Source of the DNA: Tubulanus polymorphus
Taxonomy: Eukaryota; Animalia; Nemertea
NCBI RefSeq assembly: GCF_964204645.1
Contig: NC_134026.1
Span: 8,021,950 to 8,085,949, forward strand
Direction: 5' to 3'
Length of the DNA: 64,000 bases
This document shows positions 1-56,819 of the stretch, piece after piece. The translations under genes and the position numbers were made by a program. Under the pieces are notes generated by a model, which did no database searches, was not told the origin of the DNA, and saw only the letters and a program-made list of their open reading frames with translations. Numbering within the stretch: the first letter of the stretch is position 1; every line of letters starts with the position of its first letter.

Positions 1-3000
1 TAATAACCATAAGGTAATGTTTTTATACCATCATCTGAAATATGCCTTTTATCATCAAATGGATTCAAACTAGTTTTTTCAGCTTCATTAATGTACATCT
101 CGTGATTTTCTGATCTTAAACAATTCATTTTATCTTTCATTACAATTGATTTATATAAACACTTTATATAATCTTGAAATTCTATATGTTTATCAACCAC
201 ATGTTTTGTTATTCCTTTTAACTTTTTAGCTTCATGATCTTTTGTTCTGTAACTATACATTTTACTTCTTATCCCAACAAATTCAATCATTTCATCACCC
301 CCTAATTCATCTTTAAACTTACTAGGAATCTTTTTATTATCATTGCTAAATAGTTCATGATCTTTGGGATAATTGCTAAAATCAAAATGATGTTTTAATG
401 TTTTTAAGTCTTTTGTTATATCATTTGTCTTGATTTTTAGTATGTAGGCGTCGGTATTTTTTTGGATTAATGGGAACCCAGAATTGAATGTTCCATCATC
501 TGTTGATAAATCATAAACATAGTCAGTTGGGTTATATATTTCAAATAAATCTTTAACTTCTTCTGTTAACTCATTTTCTACATGTCTTAAATTAAAGCAA
601 TTTGGTTTAGATTTAATCAATCCAATATTCATATTAAATCCTAATGAACTGCATAATATATTCAATCCTGATATAGCAACTTTTCCTTTTTGAGCTAAAG
701 ATATTGTTTTGCGATTTTTGAAACTTTTTGAACCATCTGCAGCATAGAATCCAATGAAGAACCATTTTCTTAAATTATTTTTTGCATTTAATACATAATC
801 TGGAACTATCTTTTCTTTTGTTGAAGTATTACTTTTAACTATTGCATGAATATAGAATTCATCATTATATTTTATAGCAAACTCTTTAGGATTATTTACA
901 AGTATTCTATAAACTGCTGTTGATTTCATAACATCCATGATTTTAAATGTTTTATTTGGATAAACTTCTTCACAGAATTTCTTTATTCTTTCTAATAATT
1001 TTAAGTCTTGATTGCATAAATACCAGCAATATTGAGTGCGATTAACATAATTATACACACCTGCTGAACCATCACCCATGAAAAATCCTTTGATAAAATA
1101 TTCTTTTTCTTCTAATGTTTCGGGTTCTACATTATAAATATTATCAATAATTTCATCAAATGAAATATGATTCATTCTTTGGAAAAATCTTTTATGCAAT
1201 AATTCATCTCCAATTTTTATATCAGTTGGTTTTATTTCATCACCATTTCGTTTAATTAAACTATGATCTTCTGTAACATCTACAAATGCTAATTTAGTTT
1301 TTAACTCTATAGATTTTCTTATTTGTTTTATGCCTAATAATATTCTTTAATTTTTTCCATCCATTTCTTGTCCAAACATCCATTAAATCATTTATTTGTA
1401 TTAATTCTTTTTCTCCATATGAAATATAACATTCATTTTGTTTTGGAATTATTTCTGAAATTCTTCTTATCAATATTTTATTATTACATTTTAATAATAT
1501 TGGGGTGTCAGCTGTTACAGAATCAAAATATAATATTTCAATATGCTTTTCCCCAAAAAGTGGTTGTAAAACATTATAATAAAAATCATACATTAATAAT
1601 TTTGATACTTCTAAAACAGTCGAACCAATAAATATAGGTTTATTAAATTTCATTGATGTTCTTTTTAATTTAACTGCTGTTAAATAATCTTCAAATCTTT
1701 TATTTCCTAAATGTCTAGGACTTGATTGTAGGTGTCTTAATCTTTCAGAATTATTTACTAATTCAATATCATTTCTATTTCTAATATTTTCGCATGTTTT
1801 ACCATAAAAACTATTATTCATTAATTTGAAGAAATCTTTTTCAAAATCTGTTTTTGATATGGTTCTCTGTTGAGTATTGAAATCTATATATTTTTCTAAC
1901 CACTTCGATTGATTAAATTCAATATATCTATGTACTTTCTTTAATTTCATTCCTTGTTTTAGATAAAATTTTAACATTCTATAATGAACAATATAATTGT
2001 ATTTATTATTTTGAGTAAGTATTAATTTTTCTGTAAAAACATGATCTTTCGGTTTTATTTTCTTCTGGTATTCACTTAAATAACTATCATCTACAGTTAA
2101 ATGTTCTGGGCAATAAGGTAAGTTTCTTGTTTTAAACTTAATATTTTCAGGATATTCTAAATCAACTACAAAGAAATAACCAATTGGTGCTTCATCTTTT
2201 AAACTCGCAATTGCGCTTTCCCAATCAGTTTTATCACCATTTTCAACTTCTGTTAATATAAATCATTGCCCAACCATATAAATTATTGGCGTCAATATAT
2301 AATAATTTATATTCATCATTTGCTTTAAAATATCTATCTCCCATAACACCACTAATTCCACCTCTAATTGATTTTTCAAATAATAAAACCATATCTGGTT
2401 CTTTTAATAAATCTAATTCTACATTTGTATATTTTAAACCACATTGCCAGGTTAAACCAGGACTAGAGTAGCAATAACAAGGATCAACATTAAAATGATT
2501 CAAATTAACTTCTCTAAATTTTTCAAATATGTCAGCCAATATCATAACATCTGATTTTAAATATAAATCAACTAATTCGCCATGATTTTTCATCTTAAAA
2601 TGGTTCCAAATATTTAATGTTCTATTAAAAACTTCGTCTTTCACATACTCCTCTTTTAATTGATCATAAAATTGATCTTTTAATAATTCTGTTACATTAA
2701 AATCATTGTGTGTTTTATAAAATGAATAAGGAATTGCGCCTTTATATCTCAATAATTTAAAATCTTGTTCATTTGGATAATAATATCGAGTTATAACAAA
2801 ATCATTATCAACTAAACTTTTTGATAAATTATCTAATGAACTTGCTAGAAATCTATAAGAATCTAAAAATCTAATGCAACCAAATTGAAATGAAATATAA
2901 TTTTCAGATGTTTTAGCTAATAGTTTAAAATCATATTTTCTTACATTTGCTTCATTCATAGCATTATATTCTTCTATTTCTTGATTAATTGCGCCCAATT

Positions 3001-4443
3001 TTCCCGATAATTGTTTTATAAATAGATGGGTATCATATCCTGATAAATTATGAAATAATATTGGTACGAAATTTACTTTTTTAGCTTGTAAATTGCAATT
3101 TTCATGAGCAGCTCCACGATATTTTGAATTCAAATCATCATGATCTCTAACTCTTTTATCAAATGAATAAAAACGTTTTTCACAATAACAACAATGAGTT
3201 CATTTTCATCTTTTTTGTAATATAACAAATCTATAGCATTTTCATCATCATAATATTCTGTTAAATATAAAGCTTCCAATGTATAATCTTTAATATTTTC
3301 ACCTTTTGTCTTTGGTAATTGCATTAATTCGAATACATTTATTTTTAAATTATTAACTTTTTCTATTTTAGGAATCATTTTTATAGTTACTGGATATTGA
3401 TCAATTTTATATAATGTTTCATATTTCCGATAATCTGTTATTCTACAAACATTTTCCTGTGATGGATGTAAGCAACTAATAATTGACCATAGAAAACATT
3501 TATTATCTTCATTTTGAATATTTATTACTGCTTTTGTTATAAATGGTAATTTAATATAAGATGATGCTTTAATATCCTTTTCTGTTGTAAAGTTTGAATC
3601 ATTTTTAAACATTTTATTACTTTTTGATGTTTTATTTCTTTTTGTATTATAAACATTTGAATCTAAATATATTATTTCATTCAATGTTAAGCCAGAACCC
3701 TCAAAATATCTTTCTTCAATATGACGTTTAAATTCATTTAATATTTTTTCTAACTTCTCTTTTATTTGTGTTTTTGAAATTATTTCTTCAGAGAGTGTTT
3801 GAATATTATAATTCATCTTTTCTTCTGACTTTATAAAACTTACTTTCCCAGAGATACTAATTTTTGGATATTCAACATCTGTTATCAAATCTAGTATTTT
3901 TTCTATTATTTCATTAAATTTACTATAATCTTCTATTGTTGTACCTTTAAAAAATCTAAATATAATAGCTGCAGGACCAATTTTACTATGTAATGTTTCT
4001 AAAATTTCAATTGTATCTTTTATTTCTAGTGAATCAATATAATTTCTAACATTTTCCATGTAAGGTTTATTTGAAATGGATTTAGTTTTTGAAGTTGATT
4101 TTTTTACTTGTTGAGGTTTATTATCAAAATATTCTGATCCTAAAACATTTTTATTTAAATTTTTATAATGTTTTTGTGATTCGAGATGTCTATTATAATT
4201 CCTTTTTACTATAAATTCATTACAAACTTCACATTTTATTTCATCCACATTCATATTTTCTAATCGTTCTTTTCTTTCATTGGAATTTTCTGGAGTTTCA
4301 AAATCTATTACATTTTTTATATGATTTGCAGATTTTTCATGTCGTGATTTTTGGGATTTATCGATGTATTTTTTACAATATTGACAATAATATTGATTTT
4401 TATTAACATTATTATTTTCTGGTTGGTGTTCATTCTCCCCCAT
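1..4443 (-). pseudogene. Polinton/Maverick (adintovirus-like) protein-primed family B DNA polymerase, intein-containing, disrupted
   Basis: Pieces in three ORFs plus an unlisted frame (3..~1297) join into one pPolB. Motifs in order: two C2H2 fingers, SSYIKLP..KAVINIQNEDNKCFLW, C..C....RDH..L...YRGAAHENCNL, FHNLSGYD, YLKSDVMILADIFEKFR, SIRGG, YIDANNLYGWAM, KLMNNSFYGK, YFD|TDA, KFKDE, SKMY, KGI, DDKR, TLPYGY at the window edge. Lesions at ~3200 (large deletion plus frameshift), ~2260 (small deletion plus frameshift) and 1298-1302 (+1 in a T5 run). No introns and much more AT-rich than the host genes. Confidence 0.92.
456..1521 (-). mobile_element. Intein with LAGLIDADG homing endonuclease inserted in the PolB catalytic motif (YxD/TD)
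   Basis: Block A SVTADTPILL directly follows YFD. Block B VDVTEDHSL (TEDH 1263-1274). LAGLIDADG motifs GFFMGDGS (1068-1088) and GFYAADGS (732-752). Block F YVYDLSTDDGTFNSG. Block G LIQKN followed by +1 Thr of TDAY. Span is 1066 nt = 355 codons after removing one extra base at 1298-1302. Confidence 0.95.
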
Positions 4444-4714
4444 TTATAAGGAAAAAAAATTACTTGTGGTGATCAGTGTTCGACCTTCGACCTCTGATCT
4501 GAAACCCTACTTTCCCAAATACTAGCAGAGATTCCTCTGAGTGACATTTGTGAAAACTTTGGTTAAACTTAACCAGGGATAGTTAACATGGTGACATAAA
4601 ATCTCATGTTTGCAATGCTATTTTACCGGCCGGTTATCTTACCAACTTTTGAGCAACCTTGAAACTCCAGAAAAGCCACGTGTGCTGACTACCAATCCAC
4701 CTCCGGTTTTCCCG

Positions 4715-5130
4715 GTGCTGGTTAAAATGGAGATGATTGTCGTCATGATCGTGATAGATGGTGATGCTTGTGAAGGTGATAGTGGTGATGTGATAGTGGT
4801 GATGGAGATGGTGATAGTGATGGGGATGCTGTAGGCGATCGTGGTGGGATGATGGTGAAATAAGTGATGGTGGTGATGGGGGAGGGGGGGGGGGTGATGA
4901 TGATGGTGAAATTAGTGATGTTGGTGGAGTTGGTGATGCTGGAGAAGGTGTGGCTGGTGATGGTGGTGATGGCGCTGATGATGGAGAAGGTGATGGTAGA
5001 GATTTTTTATGATAGCGATGCTGAAGGAGGTGACGGCGGTGATACTGGAGGATGATGGTGCAGATGGTGGATACGACGGGTGATGATGGTGGTGATGCTG
5101 GAGAAGGTGATAAGGCGATGGTGGTGAAGC
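4715..5130. repeat. Low-complexity GAT/GGT-rich degenerate trinucleotide tract
   Basis: Runs such as ggtgatgatggtgatggag; the overlapping His/Pro/Ser-rich ORFs are by-products. Confidence 0.85.
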
Positions 5131-6678
5131 TGAGCAAGGTAAAAACACTGACAGTGTCAAAACAAATTAGAAGTTTCTTGTTATTCTAGGGTAGCGCGAA
5201 CCAGGCCGATTACTGATGAAATCACGTTTATGGACTGACTGACTGACTGTGGATTTAAATAAGTTTGACGTTAGGATATCTTTTTATAGTAAAACCATCA
5301 CGGATTAATGTTAGGGTGAAACGATATTTTTATATGAAAAGCTGGCTTAATGCTCCGGTGTATTCAATGTTTCGTGCCCATTAACTAGACCTCAAGTGAA
5401 ACTGTTACAAGCATTATTGTTGTACGTTTTGATTTTGTAGTTTTCTGATCAAACGAAACCATTTCTGAACCTCTGAATAACTGAATCATTACAACAGTAT
5501 TTGAAGTAATGATCAAAGTAAACGGTAGAATACTAAAGTGGACGCCAGTTATGGCAAAATATGTTATTTGGTGAAATATAGTTCGTGGCAACATCCGAAA
5601 AACCTGTCAGTTGTAAAGTTTATTGCGCGTTATGAGTAATGATATGAAACCAATCCAACAGTTAGCGCATGGCTAAGGTAGTAGAAATAGCTGTAACGTT
5701 TCTGTTGCATTCAACTTAACCGTTACAAGGTAAGATGATGGAAGGCGAAAACCACCAAAACATGGTTATGTCATTCGATAATAAAAAAAATTTAAAAAGA
5801 TGATGAAAACATACAAAAAGTGAAAACATGTAATAAGGTGATGAAAACAAACTGTCAATAGGTGATAAAAAATCAATTGATGGTATCTTATCATATTTTC
5901 ATATTTTATCACCTATTCATCTTTTACAACCTTTTCATTATCTTTCGACGGTTGCCAATAGCAATATGTTACCTCATATTATTAATATATTACCTCAGCA
6001 AGAGAGTATATGAATACTTATACATTGTTTAGTATGGTAACGTATCTGTTGGGCCATATTTTGCAACAGAATAATTTTTTGTTGCTGAAGAAAAGCGAAC
6101 TTCATGGTCAAATAGATGTTTATTTGCCGACCATTACGGGTACCTGTAAAGATAAAACTCATTGGACTGATTTCACAGGAGAAAAAAATGCCCTTTGATT
6201 GTTGATGTCAACTGCGACTGAGGTTAAACGGCCTGTTCGCATTAAGTGAATATATTTTTTCAAAGATAGATCGCAACCAACAAAAACTATATATTTTTGT
6301 GTTGGAAACATACACCCGATCATGCCAAACAGATAATATCCCCGGGAAAATATCGCGGATTTATTGCGGCAACGAATTAAGTCCATGCATCAATGGAAAA
6401 TCCTGTATTCAACGGATTGATTCTGATAACGGCTCCAGTGACTTTAAAAAGCTAACGGTGAAATATAATGACGTTTTCAAAATGATAGTTATACAAATCG
6501 CGGCAGTTTTTTCCAATCGTATTTCAAGTATTGCAGTCATCATTCAGGAGAATCCGGCCCGCCGCCACCCTGATCATTCAGGAGAATCCGACCCGCCGCC
6601 GTCCGGACCATTCAGGAGAACCATTCAGAGGTGCTGCCTCAGTACACATCATTCGCGGTTAATAAGTGAACTAGAGAA

Positions 6679-8474
6679 GGGTCATTCTTAAGAATCCGCA
6701 GACCTGCCCTGAGAGGCCACATGGCTTCTCAGGGCAGGAACCTGCCCTGAGAGGCCATTGGCGCAATTAAGCAGTATAAATGGAAAACTCTGCTATAATT
6801 CTGATGAAACGGCGAACTATCTCGCCGATGTTTGACATGCACATTATCGAGTCATGAAATTAAATGGATTAAAATGAAATAAATTAAACGTATTGATATA
6901 TCGACACTTAACAAATAAAACGAAAGTGATATTTCAATTAAAATTCATTCATAATAAGAAATGTATTTTTAAAAAGTTATGTAGTTAACCGACGACGAAA
7001 AGTTATGGTGATTATATAAATTTCAAAGCATTAATTTAATTATTCAAATATCCTATAGGCCTACATAAACAATTTGTGTCGTCCACTGATATTAGTGCGT
7101 TTCAATATGCTGTATATTCTAATTCAACAGTGAATTTTTCGGGGTTGTCTACTGCTTTCGCAGAAACTCTATTGTAATTCTGCTGATCATATTTTTCTTC
7201 TCCGGGGTAAGGGTTGGTTGATCATATGTCATATTATTTTTCGTTAGGTTAATTACCTGAGCGCAGGCCAACTTTAATCAGTTTTATACTTTATCTAATG
7301 ACAATGGCATAATTATAGTTGCCACATGCAATAAGGCATACGCAATTGAATCTAATCTGATCAGCCCTGCGGGTGCAATTATATACGTAGTCTACTGTCG
7401 TCAACCTGCCCTGAGAGGCCAGTTCAACTGCTGCAGTTTGACTTCTGATATCACCTGCCCTGAGAGGCCTGTTCAACTGCTGCAGTTTGACTTCTGATAT
7501 CAACCTGCCCTGAGAGGCCACTTTCATTTTTGCAGATATCAACCTGCCCTGAGAGGCCACTTTCATTCTGCAGAAATCAACCTGCCCTGAGAGGCCAGTT
7601 TTACTGCTGCTGTTTGAGTTCTGATATCACCTGCCCTGAGAGGCCAGTTTCATTCTGCAGATATCACCTGCCCTGAGAGGCCAGTTCAACTGCTGCTGTT
7701 TGAGTTCTGATTAAACCTGCCCTGAGAGGCCACTTTCATTTTGCAGATATCAACTTGCCCTGAGAGTCTAGTTCAACTGCTGCAGTTTGACTTCCGATAT
7801 CAACCTGCCCTGAGAGGCCAGTTTCATTCTGCAGAAATCAACCTGCCCTGAGAGGCCAGTTTCATTCTGCAGATATCACCTGCCCTGAGAGGCCAGTTTA
7901 ACTGCTGCAGTTTGAGTTCTGCAGATCACCTGCCCTGAGAGTCCAGTTCAACTGCTGCAGTTTGACTTCCGATATCAACCTGCCCTGAGAGGCCACTTTC
8001 ATTCTGCAGAAATCAACCTGCCCTAAGAGGCCAGTTCATGCTTTTCCCACAGAGAAAAGTTTTTTTCATTTCTTTATTTCTATGAAAAATATTAGTATTT
8101 TTTAATTTGTTTCTGAAAAATACCAATTCTAATTCTTTTTTCTTATATATTTCAACAAAAATTCATATTTTGATTTTAGGTAACTTTTGTTTCCCTATCG
8201 TCTTGACTTTTTAACTGTTTTAGCTTAATATGATTAAAAGCATTTGTATTTCTCAATTTATTTCTATAGAATACAGCGTAGTCTTCTATTGTATGATCGA
8301 AAACTTTAGTTTGAATCTGAATATCCCGATCACCTTGCCACCATTTCAGCTCACTCTGTTGAATGGGTTTTCATTTTCTATTGATTCAAACGACTGGCCT
8401 CTCAGGGCAGGTTCCTGCCCTGAGAAGCCATGTGGCCTCTCAGGGCAGGTTCTGGAAAATCTGCAGAATGACTC
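6679..8474. mobile_element. Non-autonomous TIR DNA transposon with internal array of its TIR motif
   Basis: ~80-bp terminal inverted repeats (G(G/A)GTCATTC...acctgccctgagaggccacatggcttctcagggcaggaacctgccctgagaggcca) at 6679-6758 and 8395-8474. No transposase ORF and no clean TSD seen. Confidence 0.7.
7404..8037 (+). repeat. Tandem array of ~15 units: 18-bp core acctgccctgagaggcca plus one of two recurring linkers
   Basis: Core recurs every ~37-50 bp; linkers are of type gttcaactgctgcagtttgacttctgatatc or ctttcattctgcagaaatca. Confidence 0.9.
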
Positions 8475-8652: not shown

Positions 8653-10369
8653 ATGAAGAAAGTATTGACAAAGTGTTGTGTATGCGAGGAGCAAATGAGT
8701 CGTTATAAATGCCCGTCATGTTTCATTCAGTAGTAAGAAGAGTTCCCTCGCTTTCTTCAAATCGAATATTTAACGTTGGTTGTCGTTTAATATATTTCCA
8801 ATTTATAATCAATGAGAAATAAACCAAAAAATCAGTTATGAATAATGCACTCAATGTTCGATATTTTTCAGTTGTTCTGTGAATTGCTATAAAAATCATA
8901 AGAAAGGTAAATATGAAAAAACTGACGCCCCCTCCACCATGGATGAATGAGAGTGGCTCCGTTGATCTTAAATTGTTAATTATTACATTTTGCAGGCGTT
9001 TGTGGGACCCCAGAACAACAGATACCTGACGTAACACCAGTAATACCTACACCAGCAGCACCTGTAATACCTACAGCAGCAGCAGCTGCTGCACTTGTAA
9101 TACCTACAGTTACACCAGCAGCAGTACCGGTACTAGTCACCACTCCACTTTCAAATGAAGAAGGTACAGAAATACATAAGAGTAGATCCTAGTGATATGC
9201 AATTGATTGTTGTGAATCCTGGTCATTGTTTTGATTGTAATATTTCAATTGTCACAGCTGATGACGATGATGATTTTAGATGTTTAAATATAGAGGAAAG
9301 TGAAGATCGCGTCCCAGTCGAATCACTGCATTTATTAGGTGAGTTTTAGACTACAGTTAAACTCTTTTCAATTCTGGGCCCAGTTTCAGGAAAAATTTTA
9401 AGCCTAAAACGGTTAAGTTTGAATTGTTGTCCGCATTGAAAACACGAAGTAACCAATGGCAATTACACCAAAAATTTGAGTTTAACTCTTTCGTGAAACT
9501 GGGCCCTGGGCCTGGTTTCATAGACTGGTATCAAAGTTATCCCTAGGGGTAAATCCTTAATTCGGGTGCCAACCACCATAGTAACAATGAGAAACCATAG
9601 TAATACCTGACAAATTTCACAATGTTCCCAGGGACTATCTTTCCTCCACATCTATGAAACGCAGCCTAGCAGATCTTTAACGACAAAATTTGTGCGACTA
9701 CCGCCTGAAATTAGAGTTAATTGGGTTTTAGAGTTAATTTTCTCACTCTGAAATTAGAGTTAAATGGGTTTTTCTCTCAGTTGAGGTTACTTATACTACC
9801 GCGTACATCAATAAGATGAAATCGATGCAAGAACTAATTTGTAGTTGTCGAATGAACACTATACTCCGTGTAAACTGTAGATAAATGAAGAAATCCCACA
9901 CTTCGAATTTAAAATTATACGATTATATTTATTCTTACGAAACCTCAACGTTTCGGCTGTTGACTAACAGCCATCATCAGGTGGAATGACCAGAAAAACA
10001 AGTAACAAGAGTTTATATCCTTTGTTACTTCTTTTTCTGGTCATTCCACCTGATGATGGCTGTTAGTCAACAGCCGAAACGTTGTGGTTTCGTAAGAATA
10101 AATTTAATCGTATAATTTTAAATTCGAAGTGTGGGATTTCTTCATTTAACTAATTTGTAATTGGAACGAAACCGAGTGAAGAATAAATGATTGTAATTTC
10201 AGGTGAATCTCATGATGTAAAACAGTTACTACAGAATCAACATCTTAGAGAAATATTACTGAATTTATATCAGGACGGTAAAACTGCTACAGCTCATATC
10301 GAATCTGCGATGAAAGAACCGTTATTTATTGAATTGGCACAAACCTGTCTCACTACTATCAAACAATAA
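8653..10369 (+). CDS. ZNHIT3: Zinc finger HIT domain-containing protein 3 (multi-exon)
   Basis: Spliced exons give MKKVLTKCCVCEEQMSRYKCPSCFIQY|CSVNCYKNHK (zf-HIT), later EDRVPVESLHLL|GESHDVKQLLQNQHLREILL...AMKEPLFIELAQTCL. GT-AG junctions. Confidence 0.88.
9377..9667. mobile_element. Two abutting PIF/Harbinger-like MITEs
   Basis: First element ggcccagtttca...tgaaactgggcc (9377-9505) is flanked by CTG on both sides. The second, ggcctggtttcataga...tctatgaaacgcagcc (9509-9666), starts right after that CTG. Confidence 0.6.
9943..9984 (-). ncRNA. Minimal hammerhead ribozyme motif, mirror copy
   Basis: Reverse complement reads ccacCTGATGAtggctgttagtcaacagccGAAACGTTgagg (one stem I mismatch). Confidence 0.7.
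10046..10087 (+). ncRNA. Minimal type I hammerhead ribozyme motif
   Basis: ccac-CTGATGA-t-ggctgtt(agtc)aacagcc-GAAAC-GTT-gtgg: stem I CCAC/GUGG, 7-bp stem II, palindromic AACGUU in place of stem III. Confidence 0.78.
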
Positions 10370-10525: not shown

Positions 10526-13500
10526 TTAAGTTTTTTTTGCTTTCATGAATATTTTACTCTGTTCTCTTCTGCGTTTAGTGACCGGATTCCGAGGATCAAA
10601 TATTTCATATCGATCCAATTCATCAACGTTCGCGTCTAAAACTTTCTGTTTACTTTCTATAAATGTCAGTTTATGAGCCAGCCTGAAATAGATAACACAG
10701 AACAGTTTATGAGCCAGCCTGAAATAGATAACACAGAACAGTTTATGAGCCAGCCTGAAATAGATAACACAAAACAATTTATGAGCCAGCCTGAAATAGA
10801 TAACACAGAACAGTTTATGAGCCAGCCTGAAATAGATAACACAGAACAGTTTACGAGCCAGCCTGAAATAGATAACACAAAACAGCCTGAAATAGATAAC
10901 ACAAAACAGTTTATCAGACAGCCTGAAATAGATAACACAGAACAGTTTTTCAGACAGCCTGAAATAGGTAACACAGAACAGTTCATCAGACAGCCTGCAA
11001 TAGATAACACAGAACAGTTTATCAGTCAACTTGAAATAGATAATACAGAACAGTTTTTCAGACAGCCTGAAATAGGTAACACAGAACAGTTCATCAGACA
11101 GCCTGCAATAGATAACACAGAACAGTTTATCAGTCAACTTGAAATAGGTAACACAGAACAGTTCATCAGACAGCCTGCAATAGATAACACTGAACAGTTT
11201 ATCAGTCAACTTGAAATAGATAACACAGAACAGTTCATCAGACAGCCTGAAATAGATAATACAGAACAGTTATCAGACAGCCTGAAATAGATAACACAGA
11301 ACAGTTTAACAGACTGATATAGATAATATGGATACGATATACGATATACGTTTACAGGAGACCAGGGAAGTGAGGAGACTAAGTGTCTGCCTCCATCATA
11401 TACTAACCATGAATCGCCTTCAATATCATCATTCGTTTCATCGTTTATATCGACTATTTTCTCCTCAGTTTCCTCATCGTGTTGTTCTCTAACCGATTGT
11501 AGTCGTGTTTTGAATTTGGCCAATATCGCTAATGTCTCTTCCTCTCGTCCTGATCCTTTTTTTTTATTCTTTCCTTTCAATTCTTTATATTTTAGTTGCT
11601 CCTTTTTAAAATCTAACACGGCATCATTTGTAGATTCAGTCTCTTCTTCCGACTCTGAAATAGAAACAATCTCATACAATTACCCCCGCTTACCAGTCGT
11701 CGAAACTAGTGACTGGATACGTGCTCACTTACCAGGGCTTGTTTTCTGTGAAGTTTGTTTATTTTTCTCTTGCTTTCTTCTTTTCGCTTCTTTTAATTCT
11801 TTCTGTAACTGACGAACTTCGTTCCTTAATTCTTCCCTGAATGAAATATATTTCATATTTTTAAATTCATTCTGATGTCATTTTTACTGTTCAACTATTC
11901 GTAAATACACGAACTTTCTGGATAATTCTTTTGGTTTATCTGTTTCTTGTTTTACTGTTTCTTGTTTTACTGTTTCTTGTTCCACCTCTGTCGGTGATGA
12001 TTCATTTTCTGTTTCTTTCTTTAATTTTTTCTTCACATTTTCGATGCTCGATTCAACTGAATCTTCTTCCTATAAAACATCAGAATAACTTCATCCAGTT
12101 CACCATCAGAGTTCCAAAGTTCACAACCCAGTGCCTGATCGAGTTCCACCGTTCACAAACCAGTGCCTGATCGAGTTCCACAGCTCACAACCCAGTCCTG
12201 GATTCAGTTCCACAGTTCACAACCCAGTAGTGAACTGTGAAACTAGGTCGTGAACTGTGAACCAGGGTCCGATCTAAGTACTTTTCCGATTGCCTGGGAC
12301 AAGTATATTTTCATTAGGGCAAGTAGGTTATCATTATCACTTGTCCACCGGGCTAACGCAAGCTGTGGAACTGTGACTGTGGGTCATAAACCGTGGAACT
12401 GGATCCTGTAGTGAACTGTAGGTGTCGAACGTAATATTCACCTCTATTGAATCCTTGCTGCGTTTTTTACTAGTTTTTGTTGTTATTGGATCATCATGAA
12501 TCACTGATACTGAACTCAATTTTGGATCATCGATCAAATCATGGCTACTTTTACTTTTTCCTCTCATTTGCTACAAAAGAAAACAACATTTCAAATTACT
12601 CTCTTTATATGCGGAAATAATGAAGACGAAAATGATTTTTACCTCTGTCGCTTCATTAATCATCTCTTCATCTTCCTCTGCTTCTTCTCCGAATGACAAC
12701 AACTTAAAATTTCTGTAAACATTAATTTTCCAAAAATAGAAAATAACTTACATCTGAATTGCTCTAATACGACACAAGACGTTTGCACGTACTTTGTAGC
12801 CTTAGAACGACTGACTTTCTTCTGATTATTATCTACGTTTTTCTTATAAATTTCTCTCGGCAAAATATCATCAAACGGATTGTTCAAAATCTGTTAAAGG
12901 AAATATAAACACAATCTAAACAACTGGAGCCATCTTTCAAATCAGGTCAAGGAGATTGAATAAGGTCAAGGTTTTGGAAAGTTTTTGAGAGGGTCGCCTG
13001 TCCCACTGAAGTGATGATTTTGAGACAGTCCTCTGTCGATCTTGAAGTAATGATTTTGAGGGGGTCCCCTATCGCCCTTGAAGTAATGATTTTGAGAGGG
13101 TCCACTCACGCGTGTTGATATTATTTTCTGTAGATATTTCGGGCGGTCGTTGCTATCTGTTTCACATTCACCCAGTTTTAACATGTTGTAAACAGTCGGG
13201 CCGGTTATCTGAGAAAAGAGTAGATTATCTGAAACAGCAGATCTGAAAACTGATTCCCTGAATCAGAAATCTGATTCACTGAATATCAGCAAAAATACAA
13301 GTATTTTTGATATCAGACATCTGAAAAACTGATTCCCTAAATCACTGAATCAGAGATCTGAAAACAGACTTAGCGAATAAGAAATCTAAAAACTCCAGAA
13401 TGATTTTAAAAACATATTTAGTATTTTACCTTGCCGAATAGAGTGTGTTTTTTATTGAGTTCGGAAGCCTCGCCGAGCGTGAAAAAAAACTGACTGTCAT

Positions 13501-17139: not shown

Positions 17140-20100
17140 CTAGTTACGCAGAATGACGTCGTAAGCTTGTTGAATACACGGGTAAACATCCATAGCGCGA
17201 GATTTCAATGACAACTGAAAATAAACGATCAATATAGCCGAATCAGTAATATATCGGGGGTTTATCAGTGATATATTGGGATATCAGGTTATTTAGTGAT
17301 ATACAATGTATCGAGATAGATAGTAGATCAATGATTTATCGGGATATCAGGGGTAAATCAGAAATATATTGCGATACCAGGGGTAAATCAGTGATATAAA
17401 TCGAGATATTAGGGGGGGGGGTAAATCTCTGATATACCTAGATGTCAGATGTTAGTGGCGATGCATGGAGGTACTTACAGTAATATTCGTATTTCCAGGT
17501 TGCATTTTTAATTCGGCTAAAACCCAGATTCCATTGGTCAATCTGAGAGACTGATATAACATATCCTGACCTTCAACGTTGCGTTTAGCAATCGTAAACA
17601 CGTTATTATTACGCAACTTAGCAGACGACGTATCTATAAATAGAAACAACAGCGACACCTATAATCAGTGAAGAGACACTATTCCAGTGTTTTCAACAAG
17701 AGCCAGGTCTCGGGTCCCAGACCCGTCTGTCGTTTTTTAAGGATCCACCTGTTTTTTCAAACCAGCTTTCGTTTCAGGGACTTGTGACATATTATGGGAC
17801 CCTCCTGTTTTTCGAAGGGACCTGGCTTCTTAATTTCTTACTAAAAACACTGTATTCAACCCAGAACTGACAGACCCTAGTATCAATGGCCCTATGGTGA
17901 CAGTAAATCATACTAACCTGCACTGTGTGGTATCTGATTGATAGTTATTTGAACCTCGTTCTGAGCCGGGATATCCTTCCAGGTGGCGAGGAAAACGCGA
18001 CGTTCCATTTCACCGTCCTCAACAAATAGAACATGCATCGGTACGATACAACTGAAGTAAAACACATCGATGTTGTTCTTTACGGCCACCTGAAAATAGA
18101 AAACACAACGGGTGGCTCCAAATACTGTACTGCGAGTTTCGACACATTTCGGAGCTGTCCCGATAAGACACTGACCTGTAAATTAGTTAATGGTTCCATA
18201 CGTTGGACAGGTCCGGTTGTATTCAGATTCAGTGTTACTGATGCTGATTGATTCGGAGGAAGTGGTGTAGTTACGGATAACGGTCCAGCAGGTGTCAATC
18301 CAAAACTACAAACAATCAATCATTAATATAAACGAGGTGTAAACCAGTAGTCCATTGGGAGGTATAAACTGGTAGTCCATGGGGAGGTTTTAAACCGGTA
18401 GTCCATGGGGAGGTTTTAAACCGGTAGTCCATGGGGAGGTTTTAAACCAGTAGTCCATGGGGAGGTTTTAAACTGGTAGTCCATGGGGAGGTATAAACTG
18501 GTAGTCCATGGGGAGGTTTTAAACTGGTAGTCCATGGGGAGGTATAAACTGATAGTCCATGGGGAGGTATAAACTTATAGTCCATGGGGAGGTATAAACT
18601 GGTAGTCCATGGGGAGGTATAAACTGGTAGTCCATGGGGAGGTATAAACTGGTAGTCCATGGGGAGGTTTTAAACCGGTAGTCCATGGGGAGGTGTAAAC
18701 CAGTAGTCCATGGGGAGGTGTAAACCGGTAGTCCATGGGGAGGTATAAACCGGTAGTCCATGGGGAGGTATAAACCTGTAGTCCATGGGGAGGTGTAAAC
18801 CGGTAGTCCATGGGGAGGTGTAACCCGCTAGTCCATGGGGATGTGTAAACCGGTAGTCCATGGGGAGGTGTAAACCGGTAGTCCATGGGGATGTGTAAAC
18901 CGCTAGTCCATGGGGAGGTGTAAACCGGTAGTCCATGGGGAGGTGTAAACCGGTAGTCCATGGGGAGGTGTAAACCGGTAGTCCAGGGGGAGGTGTAAAC
19001 AGGTTACAGGTTGTAATCCAGGGGTAGGAATATTACCTGTTTTTATTGAACTGTACAGCGAATCCACCCATAGCCTGCATCGCTCTATTTGTGAATGTGA
19101 ATTCCATACAAACATGTCCTTGTTTCCGCGAGAACGTTCCAGATATATCTAAACCTTTTCCCTTAGACGCTGGTAACCAAACCTAAAATATCAGCTCATT
19201 TATTAGTGAACATGTTCACCTTCATTTAATCACCCTATGGCATCATCAACGACTAGTAACTGACCTCTTGTGGTGGAACGTAAGAAGCAGAAGTCGCAGC
19301 TAATCCAAATATGTCTCCTAATCCGGCCATACCGCCGCCCGGTTCAGACTGATTACCACCACTAAACAACTAAAACAATTCAACATACATCATTTTAATA
19401 TTGCATTCAGCTTCAGTTACTCTGCAACTAGAAACAACTATGAGCTAGGATCGCTCCAGAGACCAGAGCTAGGGTTCCTGTAGAGCTTGGAGCTAGTATC
19501 GCTCTAGAGACCAGAGTTAGGGGTCCTGTAGAGCTTGGAGCTAGGATCGCTCCAGAACTAGGGTTACTGTAGACCTTAGAGCTAGGATTGCTACAGAGGT
19601 CAAAGCTAGGGTTCCTGTAGAGCTCGGAACTAGGACTGCTCCACAGACCAGTGCTAGGGTTCCTGTAGAGCTTGGAGCTAGTATCGCTCTAGAGACCAGA
19701 GTTAGGGGTCCTGTAGAGCTTGGAGCTAGGATCGCTCCAGAACTAGGGTTACTGTAGACCTTAGAGCTAGGATTGCTACAGAGATCAAAGCTAGGGTTCC
19801 TGTAGAGCTCGGAACTAGGACTGCTCCACAGACCAGAGCTAGGGTTCCTGTAGAGCTTGGAGCTAGTATCGCTCTAGAGACCAGAGTTAGGGGTCCTGTA
19901 GAGCTTGGAGCTAGGATCGCTCCAGAACTAGGGTTACTGTAGACCTTAGAGCTAGGATTGCTACAGAGATCAAAGCTAGGGTTCCTGTAGAGCTCGGAAC
20001 TAGGACTGCTCAACAGACCAGAGCTAGGGTTCCTGTAGAGCTTGGAGCTAGTATCGCTCTAGAGACCAGAGTTAGGGGTCCTGTAGAGCTTGGAGTTTGG

Positions 20101-23100
20101 ATCGCTCTAGAGACCAGAGCTAGGGGTCCTGTATAGGTTGGAGCTAGGATTGCACAGACCTCTAAGGGTTGGAGCTAGGATTGCTCCAGAGAACAGAGCT
20201 AGGGTTTCTGTACAGCAAGGATTGCTCGACCACAAACCAAAGCTAGGGTTCAGGTAGAGCTAGGATTGCTCCACAGAGGATTGCTCTTGGAAAGCTTGGA
20301 GCTAAGATTGCTCCAAATACTCAGTAATTGTTTGTAATTGAAGAACAGAAATTATAAAATATATGAACTGGGAAAAACAGAATTTTAAGTCACCAGAAAA
20401 AAACAGAAGAGATAGAGATTTACACAACACTCACACAGAAATACCACTAGGTGGCGCTATTAATACACCTAACACACACACACAGCTACCACTAGGTGGC
20501 ACTATATACACCTACCGTATCCTCAGATCCTTCCATTGCAAACGGTGCACTCTATACGTAAATAATTAAAATACCAATCAATCAAACATGCAATTAGTAT
20601 CAGATCGCCCTCACTGCCCACCAAACCCCTGCACAGCCGACACGTCATAAATTTGAAGTGTTAGAAAGCCCTGAGCCGCAGTATTCTCTTCCCCTGGTTC
20701 CCTCCCCTGTCTATGGGAGATCTATTCAACTCACCAGACTATCCAACCCTTCTCCTAACAGATCCATCGCACCAGTTGAACTCTGCTGTATCGGAGGTTG
20801 TTGATGCATTGTCGGACCGAGGTCCATATCTAACAGGTCTCCAATCAGCGAATCGGCTCCCGGTATAACAGTAGTGACCGGCTGTTGAGCCGTCTGACCC
20901 GACTGCTGCTGCTGCTGCTGAGCTTGACCGGACGATGAATCTAATGACGTCATCTCCTCGCTGCCAGCTCTACAAACATTCGAATCAATCAATCAATCAA
21001 TCAATCAATCAGTCAATCAATCAATCAATCAATCAAAATCCACTAGGGTGAGCCACCAGTAGGGGGTGTTATACTCACGATGTAGAACGAGGCGGTAACG
21101 CTTTACGAATCGACATCCTACCCTCGACAAACGCGCTCGGTGGTTTATGATAAACCGAGGCCAGACTGGAGATGTGACAGATTAGTTCATCCAGTAGTGT
21201 CGGTTCGATGAGGTCGGTCTCTTCGCTGATCAACGGTTTCTCCGCTAACACGACGTCTTTAGCGGCAGCAGGATCCGTGGATAGTAATCTCCAATAGATA
21301 TACCCTCTGTCTCTTAGATCCGGGTTATCGCTATCCTGTGTGGCTAGCGATAGTACTTGTTGTACTAACTCCTGCGTATCTGTCGGCCGAGTGAGGAATA
21401 GTTTCACTATCGCTGTCAATAACTGTAGCTGAACCTGTCACAAATATACAGAGAGTTGAATTAAAGAGTTGATATGAGAAGAGTTGATATGAGAGGAGGA
21501 GTTGATATGAGAAGAGGAGTTGATATGAGAAGAGGAGTTGATATGAGAAGAGGAGTTGATATGAGAAGAGGAGTTGATATGAGAAGAGGAGTTGATATGA
21601 GAGGAGGAGTTGATATGAGAAGAGGAATTGATATGAGAGGAGGAGTTGATATGAAAAGAGGAGTTGATATGAGAAGAGGAGTTGATATGAGAGGAGGAGT
21701 TGATATGAGAAGAGGAGTTGATATGAGAGGAGGAGATGATATGAGAAGAGTTGATATGAGAAGAGTTGATATGAGCGGAGGAGTTGATATGAGAGTTGAT
21801 ATGAGAGGAGTTGATATGAGAGGAGTTGAATGAGAGTTGATATGGAAGGAATTGATATGAGAGGAGTTGATATGAGAGGAGTTGATATGGAAGGAATTGA
21901 TGAGAGGAGTTGAATCGAGAGTTCATTATTATTACCTGTGTATTTTCATCCTGAAATCCTTCTAGGAAACTTTCTAACAGTTCATCAGCGTTATCGATCC
22001 TCTCGGCGTATTGACCAATAATCCAAATCATTGACGCCCTGTAAACATAAACAACTCACCGATTAATCACGATTCGGGGAGTTGAGAGGGAGCGAGAGGG
22101 GGAGATACTAACCTAGCCTCAGGTTCATCCAATGTATCCAGATTCTCACACAACGTCGAAATGATACTCTCGTATTTGTTCGGATATTTACGGAAGATAT
22201 CCTAAAAATAAGGAAACCTGAATTTAGTGTCGGTAGCATATCGGCAGCGTAAGTGACGATGGAAGCGCGACCTGGTGTTTACCTTGATCACTACGATAGC
22301 CTCCTGCACGACGTAGTTGACTTTAGTTTGAATGAGGTCTAGTAACGTACTGACGCATCTTTCCGCGGCCTGTTCGACTTTAATAGCACAACGACCGATA
22401 GCGCGGACTGACTTGCGCACAAAATCTACATCGACCTCCGTAGCATATCTACAATATAAATATATATACACACACATAAATCGGATACATCCTAGCATAT
22501 CTACACAATCAGGATGTTTCCCCTGAGGGGAATGAGGAGGTGATACTCCTTTAATTCAGCCAGCATCTGTGCTATGCTGCCCTGAGGAAGTGGGAGAGTG
22601 AGCAGAGAGGGGGAGGTGTTACTTAATCCCGCCAGCATCGGTACTATGTTCGCCTAAGGAGAGGGGGTAGGAAGGGAAGGTGTTACTTACTCTTTTAATT
22701 CAGCCAGCACCTGCGCTATGTTGCCCTGACTTGTCAATCTAATCATTATATCCAATTTCTCCAGTTTCACATAAATCGGATCGTTGTATTTAACAAAGAA
22801 AACTTTCATTTCATGTCTCAATATTTCTGACCTGTGAAATAAATCACAGTTAGTTTACAATTTGGACCTTAGCTCCACAGAACATTGTCCGTTTAGATTG
22901 ACTGTAAAAATCTGATCATTTCCGATATGTTTTAAAACTTGAAGACTGAAACCGAGAAGGTTCAGAAGTCTATAGTTTATACCTCTTCTGTACGATGAGG
23001 TTAATATTCCTCAAAGCGACGTATTGAATCTCAGGTTCCGCGGATAGCAACGTCACTAAAGGTGGCGCCAGTTTCTTTATGAGATTAGACACGAATTGAG

Positions 23101-54656: not shown

Positions 54657-56783
54657 TTACTCTCGTTTGTCGATGTCAGCCTCATTAATAGTTGTCGGTA
54701 TGTCGACTGTATGCAGTAATAGATCCGGTTTTATCCTATAGATTGAGCTATTTTTCATACTTCCGTAACTATCATCTAAGCCGAGACTTGGAATGAGCGG
54801 AATGTGAGGCTCGAGCCTCGAACTGGTGCTGCTCTCGTCTGGTGAGTGAAACTGCGCGCCGGTTATATAGTCCCTTCTCGTGTTAGCAGAGAAACGTACT
54901 GTGGTATCACTACGCGAGGATCTACCGGACGTCGGGTTCCACATATTATTAGGTCTGGACGTTGGGTTCCAGGTGTTATTAGGTCTGGATTCCGGGTTCC
55001 ACGTGGAATTAGGTCTGGAGGTCGGGTTCCACATGGTATTAGGCCTGGACGCCGGGTTCCACATGGAACTAAGCCTGGACGCCGGGTTCCACGTGGAATT
55101 AGGTCGCCTGATTAGTTCAATGTGTTGAGATTTATCATTAGAATATTTCACCAGTATTTGATGATGTCGATGACTCTAAAAAAGAAAACATTTTACGAGT
55201 AAATTGATCTTGATTAGAAAAACATGGCACCCGTCGCGTTCGCCGTAAGTAATCATTAAAAATCATCGACTTTTTGCATCTGCTAAAAGGGAAATACACA
55301 CGAGTCGTTGCCCGGCAACTTCCCTCAAAATACACTCGGTCTAGCTGTAATAAAATTGTCTACTGAAATATTGACGTAAAACGCTATTTGTGATGTACGT
55401 ATGTGTGCATGCTGATCGAGACTTGAGATTTAAATTCACATCAGATACGAAACCCATCAGTAAATATGAATAGCGATTTATACCGCCACTAGAGGGCGTG
55501 CTTATCTCTTGATTTATCCGTTATTTGTCTAATTCAAAGTAAACAGCGATATAAACTACACCAGAAGCTGAAACACGTGATTTTATCTGCCTCGGGAGGC
55601 ACCTTCCTTACTCGTGATTCTATCTGTCCCAATGGACGACATGCGATGTATGGATGGCTGATTTAGTGAATAGAATGGCGACAGAAAATTACAATTTATT
55701 TCTTCCTTTTTTCTCGAGAAACAGAAATGATTTATGACAAGTTTCTTTCAATCATTTTAAACCCAACACCTCCAATTACCCAGTATATAGACGCCACTCA
55801 AGGATTCACAGCCCCTGGGCTCCGATATTTTGCAGGGCGGATCCGATGTTTCGGCGTCTGCCAAAAATAATAAGGTATGCACACATTTTTATGAATGCAA
55901 TTTTAATTGAAATGTAAAAAAAAGACTATATCGGGGAAAACACTATGCTCTACCTCTCTCTGCTCAAACATCAGGATCCGCCCTAATCATTGGGCCCTGG
56001 AATATAGCCCATAGGGCCGGGCTCGGGCGATACATACCGGTGAGGCCGGAGTTTTATAACTCGGTCTCGAATTGATGTTAACTTTTAGCCCCAATTTTTT
56101 CTTGACGCTTCTCCTGAAACTGCGATTCATAAACCAGTACAATAACGGGTTCAGGGCACTGTTGGAGTGTCCTAGTAACAGCGTAAACGGCAATACAGAT
56201 AATAACCCAACAGACGGGTTTATTCCAAACTCATAATCATGTAAATCAATACTCAATGATACGATGTTATACGGCATCCAACACACAGCGAATAGAATAG
56301 CCAAAAACATTAACATCCGGGACACTTTACGCCGACCCCGCATTATCGACTTATTTTGTTCTTGAAGCGCTTTCGAATCCTGGCGGTGAAGACTTTCACT
56401 ACTTCCAGTCAATAGTTGACACCCGATTAGCGAGTACGACGCGGTAATTATTACTCCGGGAATAATATAAACACAGATTAATAATGAGATACTGTAGGCT
56501 CTACGTACTTCAGGGGACCACCATCTTTCTGTACAGAAGTCTATTGGTTCGGAGTAGAGCTCAGTGATTGCGGGAGTGGTCTCTGTTTGTCTGACCAACA
56601 TCAGCGGTAACATTATCGCTAGCGATATCAACCATAAAATCACGATAGCGATTTTAGCGTATTTCGATTTACTGACGCGACGAAACGTCATTGGATGTCT
56701 AATCGCCAGGAGGCGCTCCAAACTCATCACGCATAGTGTTGTTACACTGGCTGATACCGATACTCCTGCAAATATATATGACA

Positions 56784-56819
<36 letters not shown>

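Follow-up and report, generated by a model that had tools for sequence, protein, structure and literature searches.

The window analysed here is a stretch of 64,000 nucleotides from the nemertean Tubulanus polymorphus (assembly GCF_964204645.1, contig NC_134026.1, positions 8,021,950 to 8,085,949 of the forward strand). Its left end carries, on the minus strand, a gene for a protein-primed family B DNA polymerase (pPolB) that extends from 4443 to the left window edge in four reading-frame pieces. This gene is interrupted at the sequence YFD|TDAY by a LAGLIDADG intein occupying 1521-456 on the same strand. The relevant features, with the evidence for each, are the following.

3..455, minus strand: pPolB C-extein, from the +1 Thr (TDAY) up to the edge of the window; 75% identical to P0156 residues 1187-1337
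456..1521, minus strand: frameshifted copy of a Pol-c allele intein with a LAGLIDADG homing endonuclease domain; motifs and profiles, boundaries fixed by empty relatives
456..1346, minus strand: C-terminal piece of the intein, with blocks B, F and G and the LAGLIDADG motifs; motifs, profiles and 60% identity to the intact P0001 intein
1294..1346, minus strand: overlap of two reading frames, within which the intein changes frame; ORF and motif positions
1297..1521, minus strand: N-terminal piece of the intein, with block A (Ser1) and the beginning of the Hint domain, read in the frame of the extein upstream; TIGR01445, E 5.5e-5
1522..2262, minus strand: pPolB extein upstream of the site, with a KxxxNxxYGK motif at about 1830-1798 and ending in YFD; 89% identical to P0155 and 70-74% to P0156-P0158
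2243..3199, minus strand: middle piece of the pPolB, with an endonuclease VII-like motif at its start and broken at both ends; PF03175 E 9.5e-12, homologues matching PF02945, tblastn
3130..4443, minus strand: N-terminal piece of the pPolB, with zinc-finger motifs; zf-U1 E 2e-5, 57% identical to P0156 residues 6-407
4201..4523, no strand assigned: likely element end, terminal-repeat-like, reading 5'-AGTA on the minus strand at 4523; read depth, alternative flanks and GC
10187-10369: host exon, C-terminus of ZNHIT3
21936-22055: host exon, beta-adaptin
55987-56793: host exon, rhodopsin-type peptide GPCR

The N-side junction of the insert reads HIEILYFD|SVTADTPILL, with Ser1 at 1521, and the C-side junction reads GFPLIQKN|TDAY, with the terminal Asn ending at 456 and the +1 Thr at 455-453. 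Between them lie block B (TEDH, 1274-1263), two LAGLIDADG motifs that both retain aspartates (GFFMGDGS, 1088-1065, and GFYAADGS, 752-729), block F (YDL, starting at 515) and block G, which ends Gln-Lys-Asn (464-456). The set of class 1 intein residues is complete: Ser1, the Thr and His of block B, the Asp of block F, the terminal Asn and the +1 Thr. The penultimate His, which inteins do not strictly require, is absent; the window intein has Lys at this position, and P0002 and P0003 have His. The N piece is read in the frame of ORF 1294-2262 and the remainder in that of ORF 3-1346, and because the frame changes within 1294-1346 the two pieces were analysed separately. The C piece matched LAGLIDADG_3 (PF14528) above the cut-off (E 3e-7) and Intein_splicing below it (E 8e-4), while the N piece scored 24.1 bits on intein_Nterm (TIGR01445) against a cut-off of 24.5. 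The closest polymerase relatives, P0155-P0158 (70-89% identical), carry the uninterrupted motif IMYFDTDSY with no insert, and both boundaries of the intein are therefore exact. In relatives P0001-P0005 the insertion is in frame and intact; the window copy is frameshifted. Blocks, profiles and empty relatives thus agree on what the original prediction, made from the sequence without database searches, had proposed, namely an intein with all splicing blocks at the pPolB catalytic motif, and the frame break that it placed inside the intein could be located to 1294-1346.

The AlphaFold model built for P0004, an intact relative, has high confidence across the insert, with 10-residue blocks mostly at pLDDT 89-98. 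Compared with solved structures by Foldseek, this model retrieved endonuclease-bearing inteins first (7qst, E 1.7e-14), further matches including PhoVMA, TliVMA, PI-PfuI and PI-SceI and then I-DmoI; in a viral structure library, its top named matches were giant-virus DNA polymerases. By analogy with P0004, the window insert is predicted to adopt a Hint fold with an inserted endonuclease domain. Searched by sequence, the PDB yielded no significant match to the intein C piece (2 matches, E 0.5). A Hedgehog-type Hint domain was ruled out, given that the insert is internal, bears an endonuclease and has empty alleles, and a chance ORF was rejected as an account of the insert. The insert occupies the Pol-c site (equivalent to YGD|TDS) of Mimivirus and archaeal PolB and is kin to the inteins found there, although archaeal members lie outside our trees. 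The accessible text of PMC549080 describes this allele (position III) for Mimivirus and archaeal PolB, in line with the YxD/TD site assigned at the outset. Judged by its sequence, the insert qualifies as a canonical intein of the Pol-c allele that carries a LAGLIDADG domain, and both splicing and cutting are predicted.

The host protein is equally well defined. The polymerase matches PF03175, the window extein pieces gave no significant alignment to the Mimivirus PolB, P0038 (best E 0.36 and 0.78), and the upstream extein piece gave none to the RNA-primed PolB P0007 (E 0.16); the intein N piece, compared with the same P0038, is 43% identical over 82 aa (E 4e-12). These results rule out a giant-virus PolB as the extein and uphold its earlier assignment to pPolB as opposed to the RNA-primed PolB of NCLDVs. 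The window pPolB type shares an endonuclease VII-like (HNH) motif with P0002, P0138 and P0156, and its motifs would tentatively place it in the class called 'Beta' or group 1 in PMC8502044. Further breaks lie in the polymerase itself, near 2250 and near 3200, and about 205 residues of the homologue P0156 have no counterpart near the latter position. Given the frame breaks in both intein and polymerase, the window copy is a decayed relic, incapable of producing a full-length polymerase.

Raw whole-genome reads from a second study (run X5) showed a mean depth of ~380 on the polymerase and 211 within the intein, compared with 8 in three bins of unique flank. Relative to single-copy depth, this amounts to an estimated ~47x for the polymerase and ~26x for the intein, and the element is thus multi-copy in the host species. 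The element reads are heterogeneous, 85-99% alike to the window, and four runs of one study contain 55-59% of the element's words. No RNA data set was among those listed for the element, which says nothing about its expression, and no contigs over it came from run X6, which does not prove that it is missing there. A contig from run X1 that covers 1083-1386 has a gap relative to the window, consistent with the intein break being absent from some copies. No read joint across the empty site (455 to 1522) is found among the 15 of 151 joints listed, so the indication of empty copies in the host species is solely the intein-to-polymerase depth ratio of 0.56, for which divergence could be another cause.

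Near the right end of the polymerase gene, depth reaches 1065 at 4201-4500, against ~380 inside the element, and drops to 74 at 4501-4800. Contigs of run X1 exit the window sequence at 4523 and 4526 into different flanks, exits that likely mark the end of an element with several insertion sites, and GC shifts at this end from ~24% to ~40%. Terminal inverted repeats of Polintons start with 5'-AG. The element, known here by its pPolB and one end and running off position 1 of the window, is likely a Polinton. Polintons are further characterized by genes for a retroviral-type integrase, a packaging ATPase, a protease and capsid proteins, and in this element the capsid and integrase genes would fall to the left of position 1. 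Among the pieces listed, no contig or long read bridges the 4523 junction, and it is the window copy alone that links the intein to an animal. The depth at 4201-4523, nearly three times that of the element interior, is above what two terminal repeats predict, and there may be short non-autonomous or polymerase-only derivatives of the element. Elsewhere in the window, the GPCR exon has its best named relatives in bivalves (42-45%), with a beetle at 33% and a lizard at 25%, which points to a likely lophotrochozoan host, and 10529-10678 may encode the C-terminus of CWC27, which it resembles with no Pfam match. Positions 6702-8450 hold a MITE-like element, multi-copy by depth, whose inverted ends are perfect over 56 nt and whose interior has repeats of 38-50 nt, and low-complexity or minisatellite arrays with spurious long ORFs lie at 4750-5150, 10640-11290, 18575-19003 and 21331-22055.

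We then compared the intein with sequences in public databases. A protein search with the C piece returned 208 matches, from the best 120 of which our figures are drawn. The top five among the matches listed are intein-bearing pPolBs (60, 46, 47, 45 and 44% identity); RNA-primed PolBs follow, with the Mimivirus PolB intein at 36% and the best virus at 41%. A search of 1.84 billion representative sequences yielded 885 matches, with figures taken from the best 150. Out of 407 proteins gathered from the matches listed, 274 fit the intein profile, comprising 233 RNA-primed PolBs, 19 pPolBs and 22 unclassified proteins. Intein-bearing pPolBs accordingly number at least 19 proteins in 9 clusters, with an insertion site identical to that of the window. 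Of the carrier clusters, two have as many as 136 and 121 members and include, among those listed, contigs reaching 1.0 Mb and 55 kb, as repeats residing in genomes should. Both Pfam domains of the intact carriers are already precomputed in public databases. When the extein was used as the query, 118 new relatives were recovered, 105 of them empty, 10 truncated or odd and 3 with an insert, inside which all three sequences end. The closest relative among the matches listed is a fragment, P0272, 75% identical to the window intein and with a pPolB C-extein and C-terminal splicing blocks in frame. Related inteins also occur in 14 viral and 27 metagenomic loci (25-36% identity over long matches), none of these 41 loci containing a pPolB. 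A related-locus search with P0001 as query gave no loci, and a profile search with a mixed alignment gave polymerases only among its best 60 matches.

Phylogenetic reconstruction of 175 non-redundant full inteins and the window piece (176 rows; 35 of 210 were dropped as near-duplicates) was accompanied by a quick tree of 48 rows and a tree of 30 rows, all unrooted. The pPolB inteins, six rows in the largest tree, form one clade in each (support 0.99 with 176 rows, 99 with 48 and 100/99 with 30), which lies among RNA-primed PolB inteins, mostly of giant-virus type. The nearest row to the window intein is P0001 (97/94). With 176 rows, the clade is grouped with P0301 and a seven-row PolB group (0.93); the support for its sister in the 48- and 30-row trees is at most 77. 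A C-terminal segment of 20 residues, one shorter than in other inteins, occurs in 15 of the 176 rows, namely the six pPolBs, the seven PolBs grouped next to them and two others. Five of these seven PolBs have C-exteins 46-52% identical to Mimivirus PolB, and the remaining two are T4-like phage PolBs, P0281 (547 bits on phrog_262) and P0283 (51% identical to P0281). The inteins of P0281 and P0283 group with giant-virus inteins, likely through exchange between phages and giant viruses.

A special link to Mimivirus, which the original prediction had drawn in part from the penultimate Lys, did not survive these comparisons. Lys precedes the last Asn in 49 of 173 full inteins, Mimivirus among them, and the pPolB clade is not sister to Mimivirus P0038 in any of the three trees; Mimivirus as the specific donor was therefore rejected. 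The broader proposal, that the intein passed from a nucleocytovirus PolB into a pPolB, stands as regards kinship with giant-virus-type PolB inteins. As to donor and direction it rests on parsimony, because the sister group is weakly supported and the trees are unrooted; a giant-virus-type PolB is the most economical donor, though not a proven one. The natural meeting place of such a donor and a pPolB would be a eukaryotic cell.

The association of intein and polymerase appears to be old. Across seven carriers of the window's pPolB class, intein and extein identities track each other from ~0.4 to 0.75 (Mantel r 0.87, a value reached in 19 of 5040 permutations), and the GC of the window intein (24.9%) shows no contrast with that of its extein (23-26%). 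This co-divergence, together with equal GC, points to long residence and an old acquisition. The idea of a recent event peculiar to this lineage is accordingly unsupported, given co-divergence down to ~40-45% identity. Residence has not been confined to one type of polymerase. The intein of P0005 is 44-46% identical to those of other carriers and is nested within the pPolB clade (99/93), and its extein, of another pPolB class, gives no significant alignment; kinship of the intein combined with an unalignable extein indicates that the intein jumped between pPolB classes.

Signs of homing were sought in the distribution of full and empty alleles. In an extein tree of 45 rows (P0005 left out as unalignable, and 8 of 52 ids dropped because the site pattern was unmatched), the eight full rows are scattered, starred branches force at least six changes, and for most of the full rows the nearest neighbours are empty alleles. 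The P0002 cluster alone, among 15 listed members, contains 7 full alleles, 5 empty ones and 3 sequences without the site. We compared its 7 full alleles with 7 empty ones, of which the cluster itself contributed 5 and neighbouring clusters 2. Among 1191 columns, 10 are diagnostic, and all of these fall between -6 and +44 residues from the site, and upstream exteins are 94.6-100% identical between full and empty alleles. The ten columns are linked and so represent one tract, not ten events; on sequence grounds, this tract fits co-conversion of the flank and survival of resistant empty sites. At -1, three residues occur among the empty alleles of this family. The sole empty allele of the P0004 family, P0141, has flanks identical to those of the full P0004, P0138 and P0143 over 60 residues on each side, which fits precise loss equally well as an unconverted target. 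Among the full P0002-family alleles, conservation is lower in the intein than in the extein (97.9% versus 99.4%), so that a recent sweep is not suggested. Both LAGLIDADG motifs are kept in all five aligned intact carriers and in the window copy, at 45-60% identity. At the insertion point, 38 of 105 empty pPolB sites (P0172-P0267) have D-C-D in place of D-T-D, all complete full alleles having Thr; the D-C-D sites could represent escape of the target from the endonuclease.

Taken together, we consider it probable that the window contains a Pol-c intein in the pPolB catalytic motif of a multi-copy, likely Polinton, element, that it likely descends from one old entry from a giant-virus-type PolB and that homing has likely maintained it. 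In intact copies, the polymerase would be translated with the intein inside, and Ser1, the Thr and His of block B, the terminal Asn and the +1 Thr would excise it, restoring the D-T-D active site. The endonuclease would cut intein-free pPolB genes at the insertion site, and repair from an intein-bearing copy would transfer the intein with some of its flank, as the allele patterns suggest. Polintons are present in tens to hundreds of copies per genome, and empty targets would be renewed within one nucleus or in co-replicating elements. Such renewal would keep the endonuclease under selection and would account for the presence of both full and empty alleles in most sampled pPolB lineages. After its entry, the intein would mostly have travelled with its polymerase lineage, crossing at least once into the other pPolB class. 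We incline, by a little, to a stronger form of this account, in which a live intein of giant-virus origin cycles over the long term through animal Polintons, splicing, driving itself between paralogous copies and jumping between classes, with empty copies gaining resistance.

Much of this evidence might also be read without homing. After a single entry, the intein could have been inherited vertically and precisely lost many times, with little or no mobility in animal genomes; co-divergence of intein and extein, the greater variability of the intein within a family, the flanks that P0141 shares with full alleles and the preponderance of empty sites (105 of 118 new extein relatives, against 3 with an insert) are all as such a history predicts. 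We nevertheless judge it unlikely, since an intein that does not home should decay to a mini-intein and both LAGLIDADG motifs persist despite 45-60% identity, the P0002-family differences cluster at the site, and the jump into another pPolB class needs mobility. As to the source, the intein might have reached this Polinton lineage recently from a Mimivirus-like giant virus, on which the lineage would depend as a virophage does. This would account for the giant-virus-type dominance of the RNA-primed PolBs that make up 233 of the 274 intein proteins among the matches listed, and for the 46-52% identity to Mimivirus PolB of the C-exteins of five of the nearest candidates. The nearest inteins, however, are all in other pPolBs (44-60%, against 41% for the best virus among the matches listed), the pPolB intein clade is old and not sister to Mimivirus, the 41 viral and metagenomic loci with related inteins hold no pPolB, and GC does not differ between intein and extein, so that 'recent' is largely refuted. 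Nor is dependence required, as one ancient meeting in a shared cell is enough and T4-like phage PolBs are also near candidates; we regard this history as very improbable.

Two further explanations are, in our view, less plausible still, and to a like degree. One is that the donor was a T4-like phage PolB or an unsampled reservoir, or that transfer ran from pPolB to PolB. The phrog_262 score of P0281, the 20-residue C-terminal segment that it and P0283 share with the pPolB inteins and the weakly supported sister group in unrooted trees leave some room for this, whereas five of the seven PolB rows that have the short segment and group next to the clade are of giant-virus type, and the diversity of PolB inteins far exceeds that of the one pPolB clade. 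The other explanation supposes that the element came from a symbiont, a contaminant or a free virus and was misassembled beside animal DNA, as its GC (24% versus 40% elsewhere) and the unbridged 4523 junction among the contigs and long reads listed might suggest. Against this, reads of an independent study (X5, study P2) cover both element and flank, the former ~47 times more deeply, the copies are heterogeneous and other flanks begin at the same end (4523, 4526), the multiple breaks of the window copy are typical of a genomic relic, and contigs with related intein-bearing pPolBs reach 1.0 Mb. An old entry from a giant-virus-type PolB, followed by maintenance through homing, remains the reading that we prefer.

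Against this background, the window intein can be set beside systems already described. With the Mimivirus PolB and archaeal Pol-c inteins it shares the YxD|TD site, Ser1, terminal Asn and +1 Thr, the Thr-His of block B, LAGLIDADG motifs and a length of ~350 aa, and its identity to the Mimivirus intein is 36% for the C piece and 43% for the N piece. Unlike the Mimivirus intein, it is hosted by a protein-primed polymerase in a multi-copy element of an animal genome, and inteins of its type form their own clade with a C-terminal segment one residue shorter. Polinton/Maverick (adintovirus) pPolBs with inserted HNH or VSR nuclease domains appear in the accessible parts of PMC10748475 and PMC11161782, the latter suggesting that the inserts are an outcome of intein invasions. 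These proteins share the polymerase family, and the window type likewise has the endonuclease VII-like (HNH) motif; their inserts were reported as domains and not as splicing elements, whereas the window insert combines complete splicing blocks and LAGLIDADG motifs with a position in the active site and with empty alleles. In fungi and protists, nuclear inteins (VMA1, Prp8 and those of Anaeramoeba, for the last of which see the available text of PMC10710043) are similarly endonuclease-bearing and eukaryotic, and PI-SceI was among the fold matches. They reside in host genes of microbial eukaryotes and find their empty targets on the homologous chromosome, whereas the window intein resides in a virus-like mobile element of an animal and would find its targets in paralogous copies of that element.

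Earlier descriptions of an intein in a pPolB were not found in the full-text literature searched, a body that leaves supplements, Repbase, InBase and most subscription journals outside its coverage, and the novelty originally claimed for a Polinton pPolB intein holds within that literature. The word 'intein' does not occur in the main text, as accessible, of PMC8097293, PMC10748475 or PMC8502044; the consulted portions of PMC12220804, PMC3671162, PMC5718144, PMC13768754, 10.1101/299784 and PMC9939771 contain generic mentions of inteins only, and those of PMC10710043 mention neither Polintons nor animals. According to the available sections of PMC5784728 and PMC8529194, metazoan genomes lack inteins.

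What the window holds is an intein allele already known, here in a host protein of a new class and, in the case of the window copy, in the nuclear genome of an animal. It is an exception to the absence of inteins from metazoans, though inside an endogenous virus-like element and not in a host gene. It also shows that the divide between RNA-primed and protein-primed polymerases, with flanks that are unalignable, can be crossed by one intein allele, a kind of jump that PMC549080, in the part available, calls implausible for ordinary homing. With natural series of full and empty alleles available from single families, the cycle of homing, resistance and loss can be tested directly among the many copies of a nuclear element. 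Where some copies of a family carry an intein, its presence marks those that were recently translated and recombining, which bears on the question of Polintons as active viruses. If live cycling is true, the arrangement would be a parasite at three levels, an intein in a Polinton in an animal, and a molecular record of contact between Polintons and giant viruses. Beyond the polymerases, P0099, P0106, P0118 and P0119, which resemble type II topoisomerases, carry an intein of the same family at a D|TDG motif, and these carriers may reflect another jump to a different host protein.
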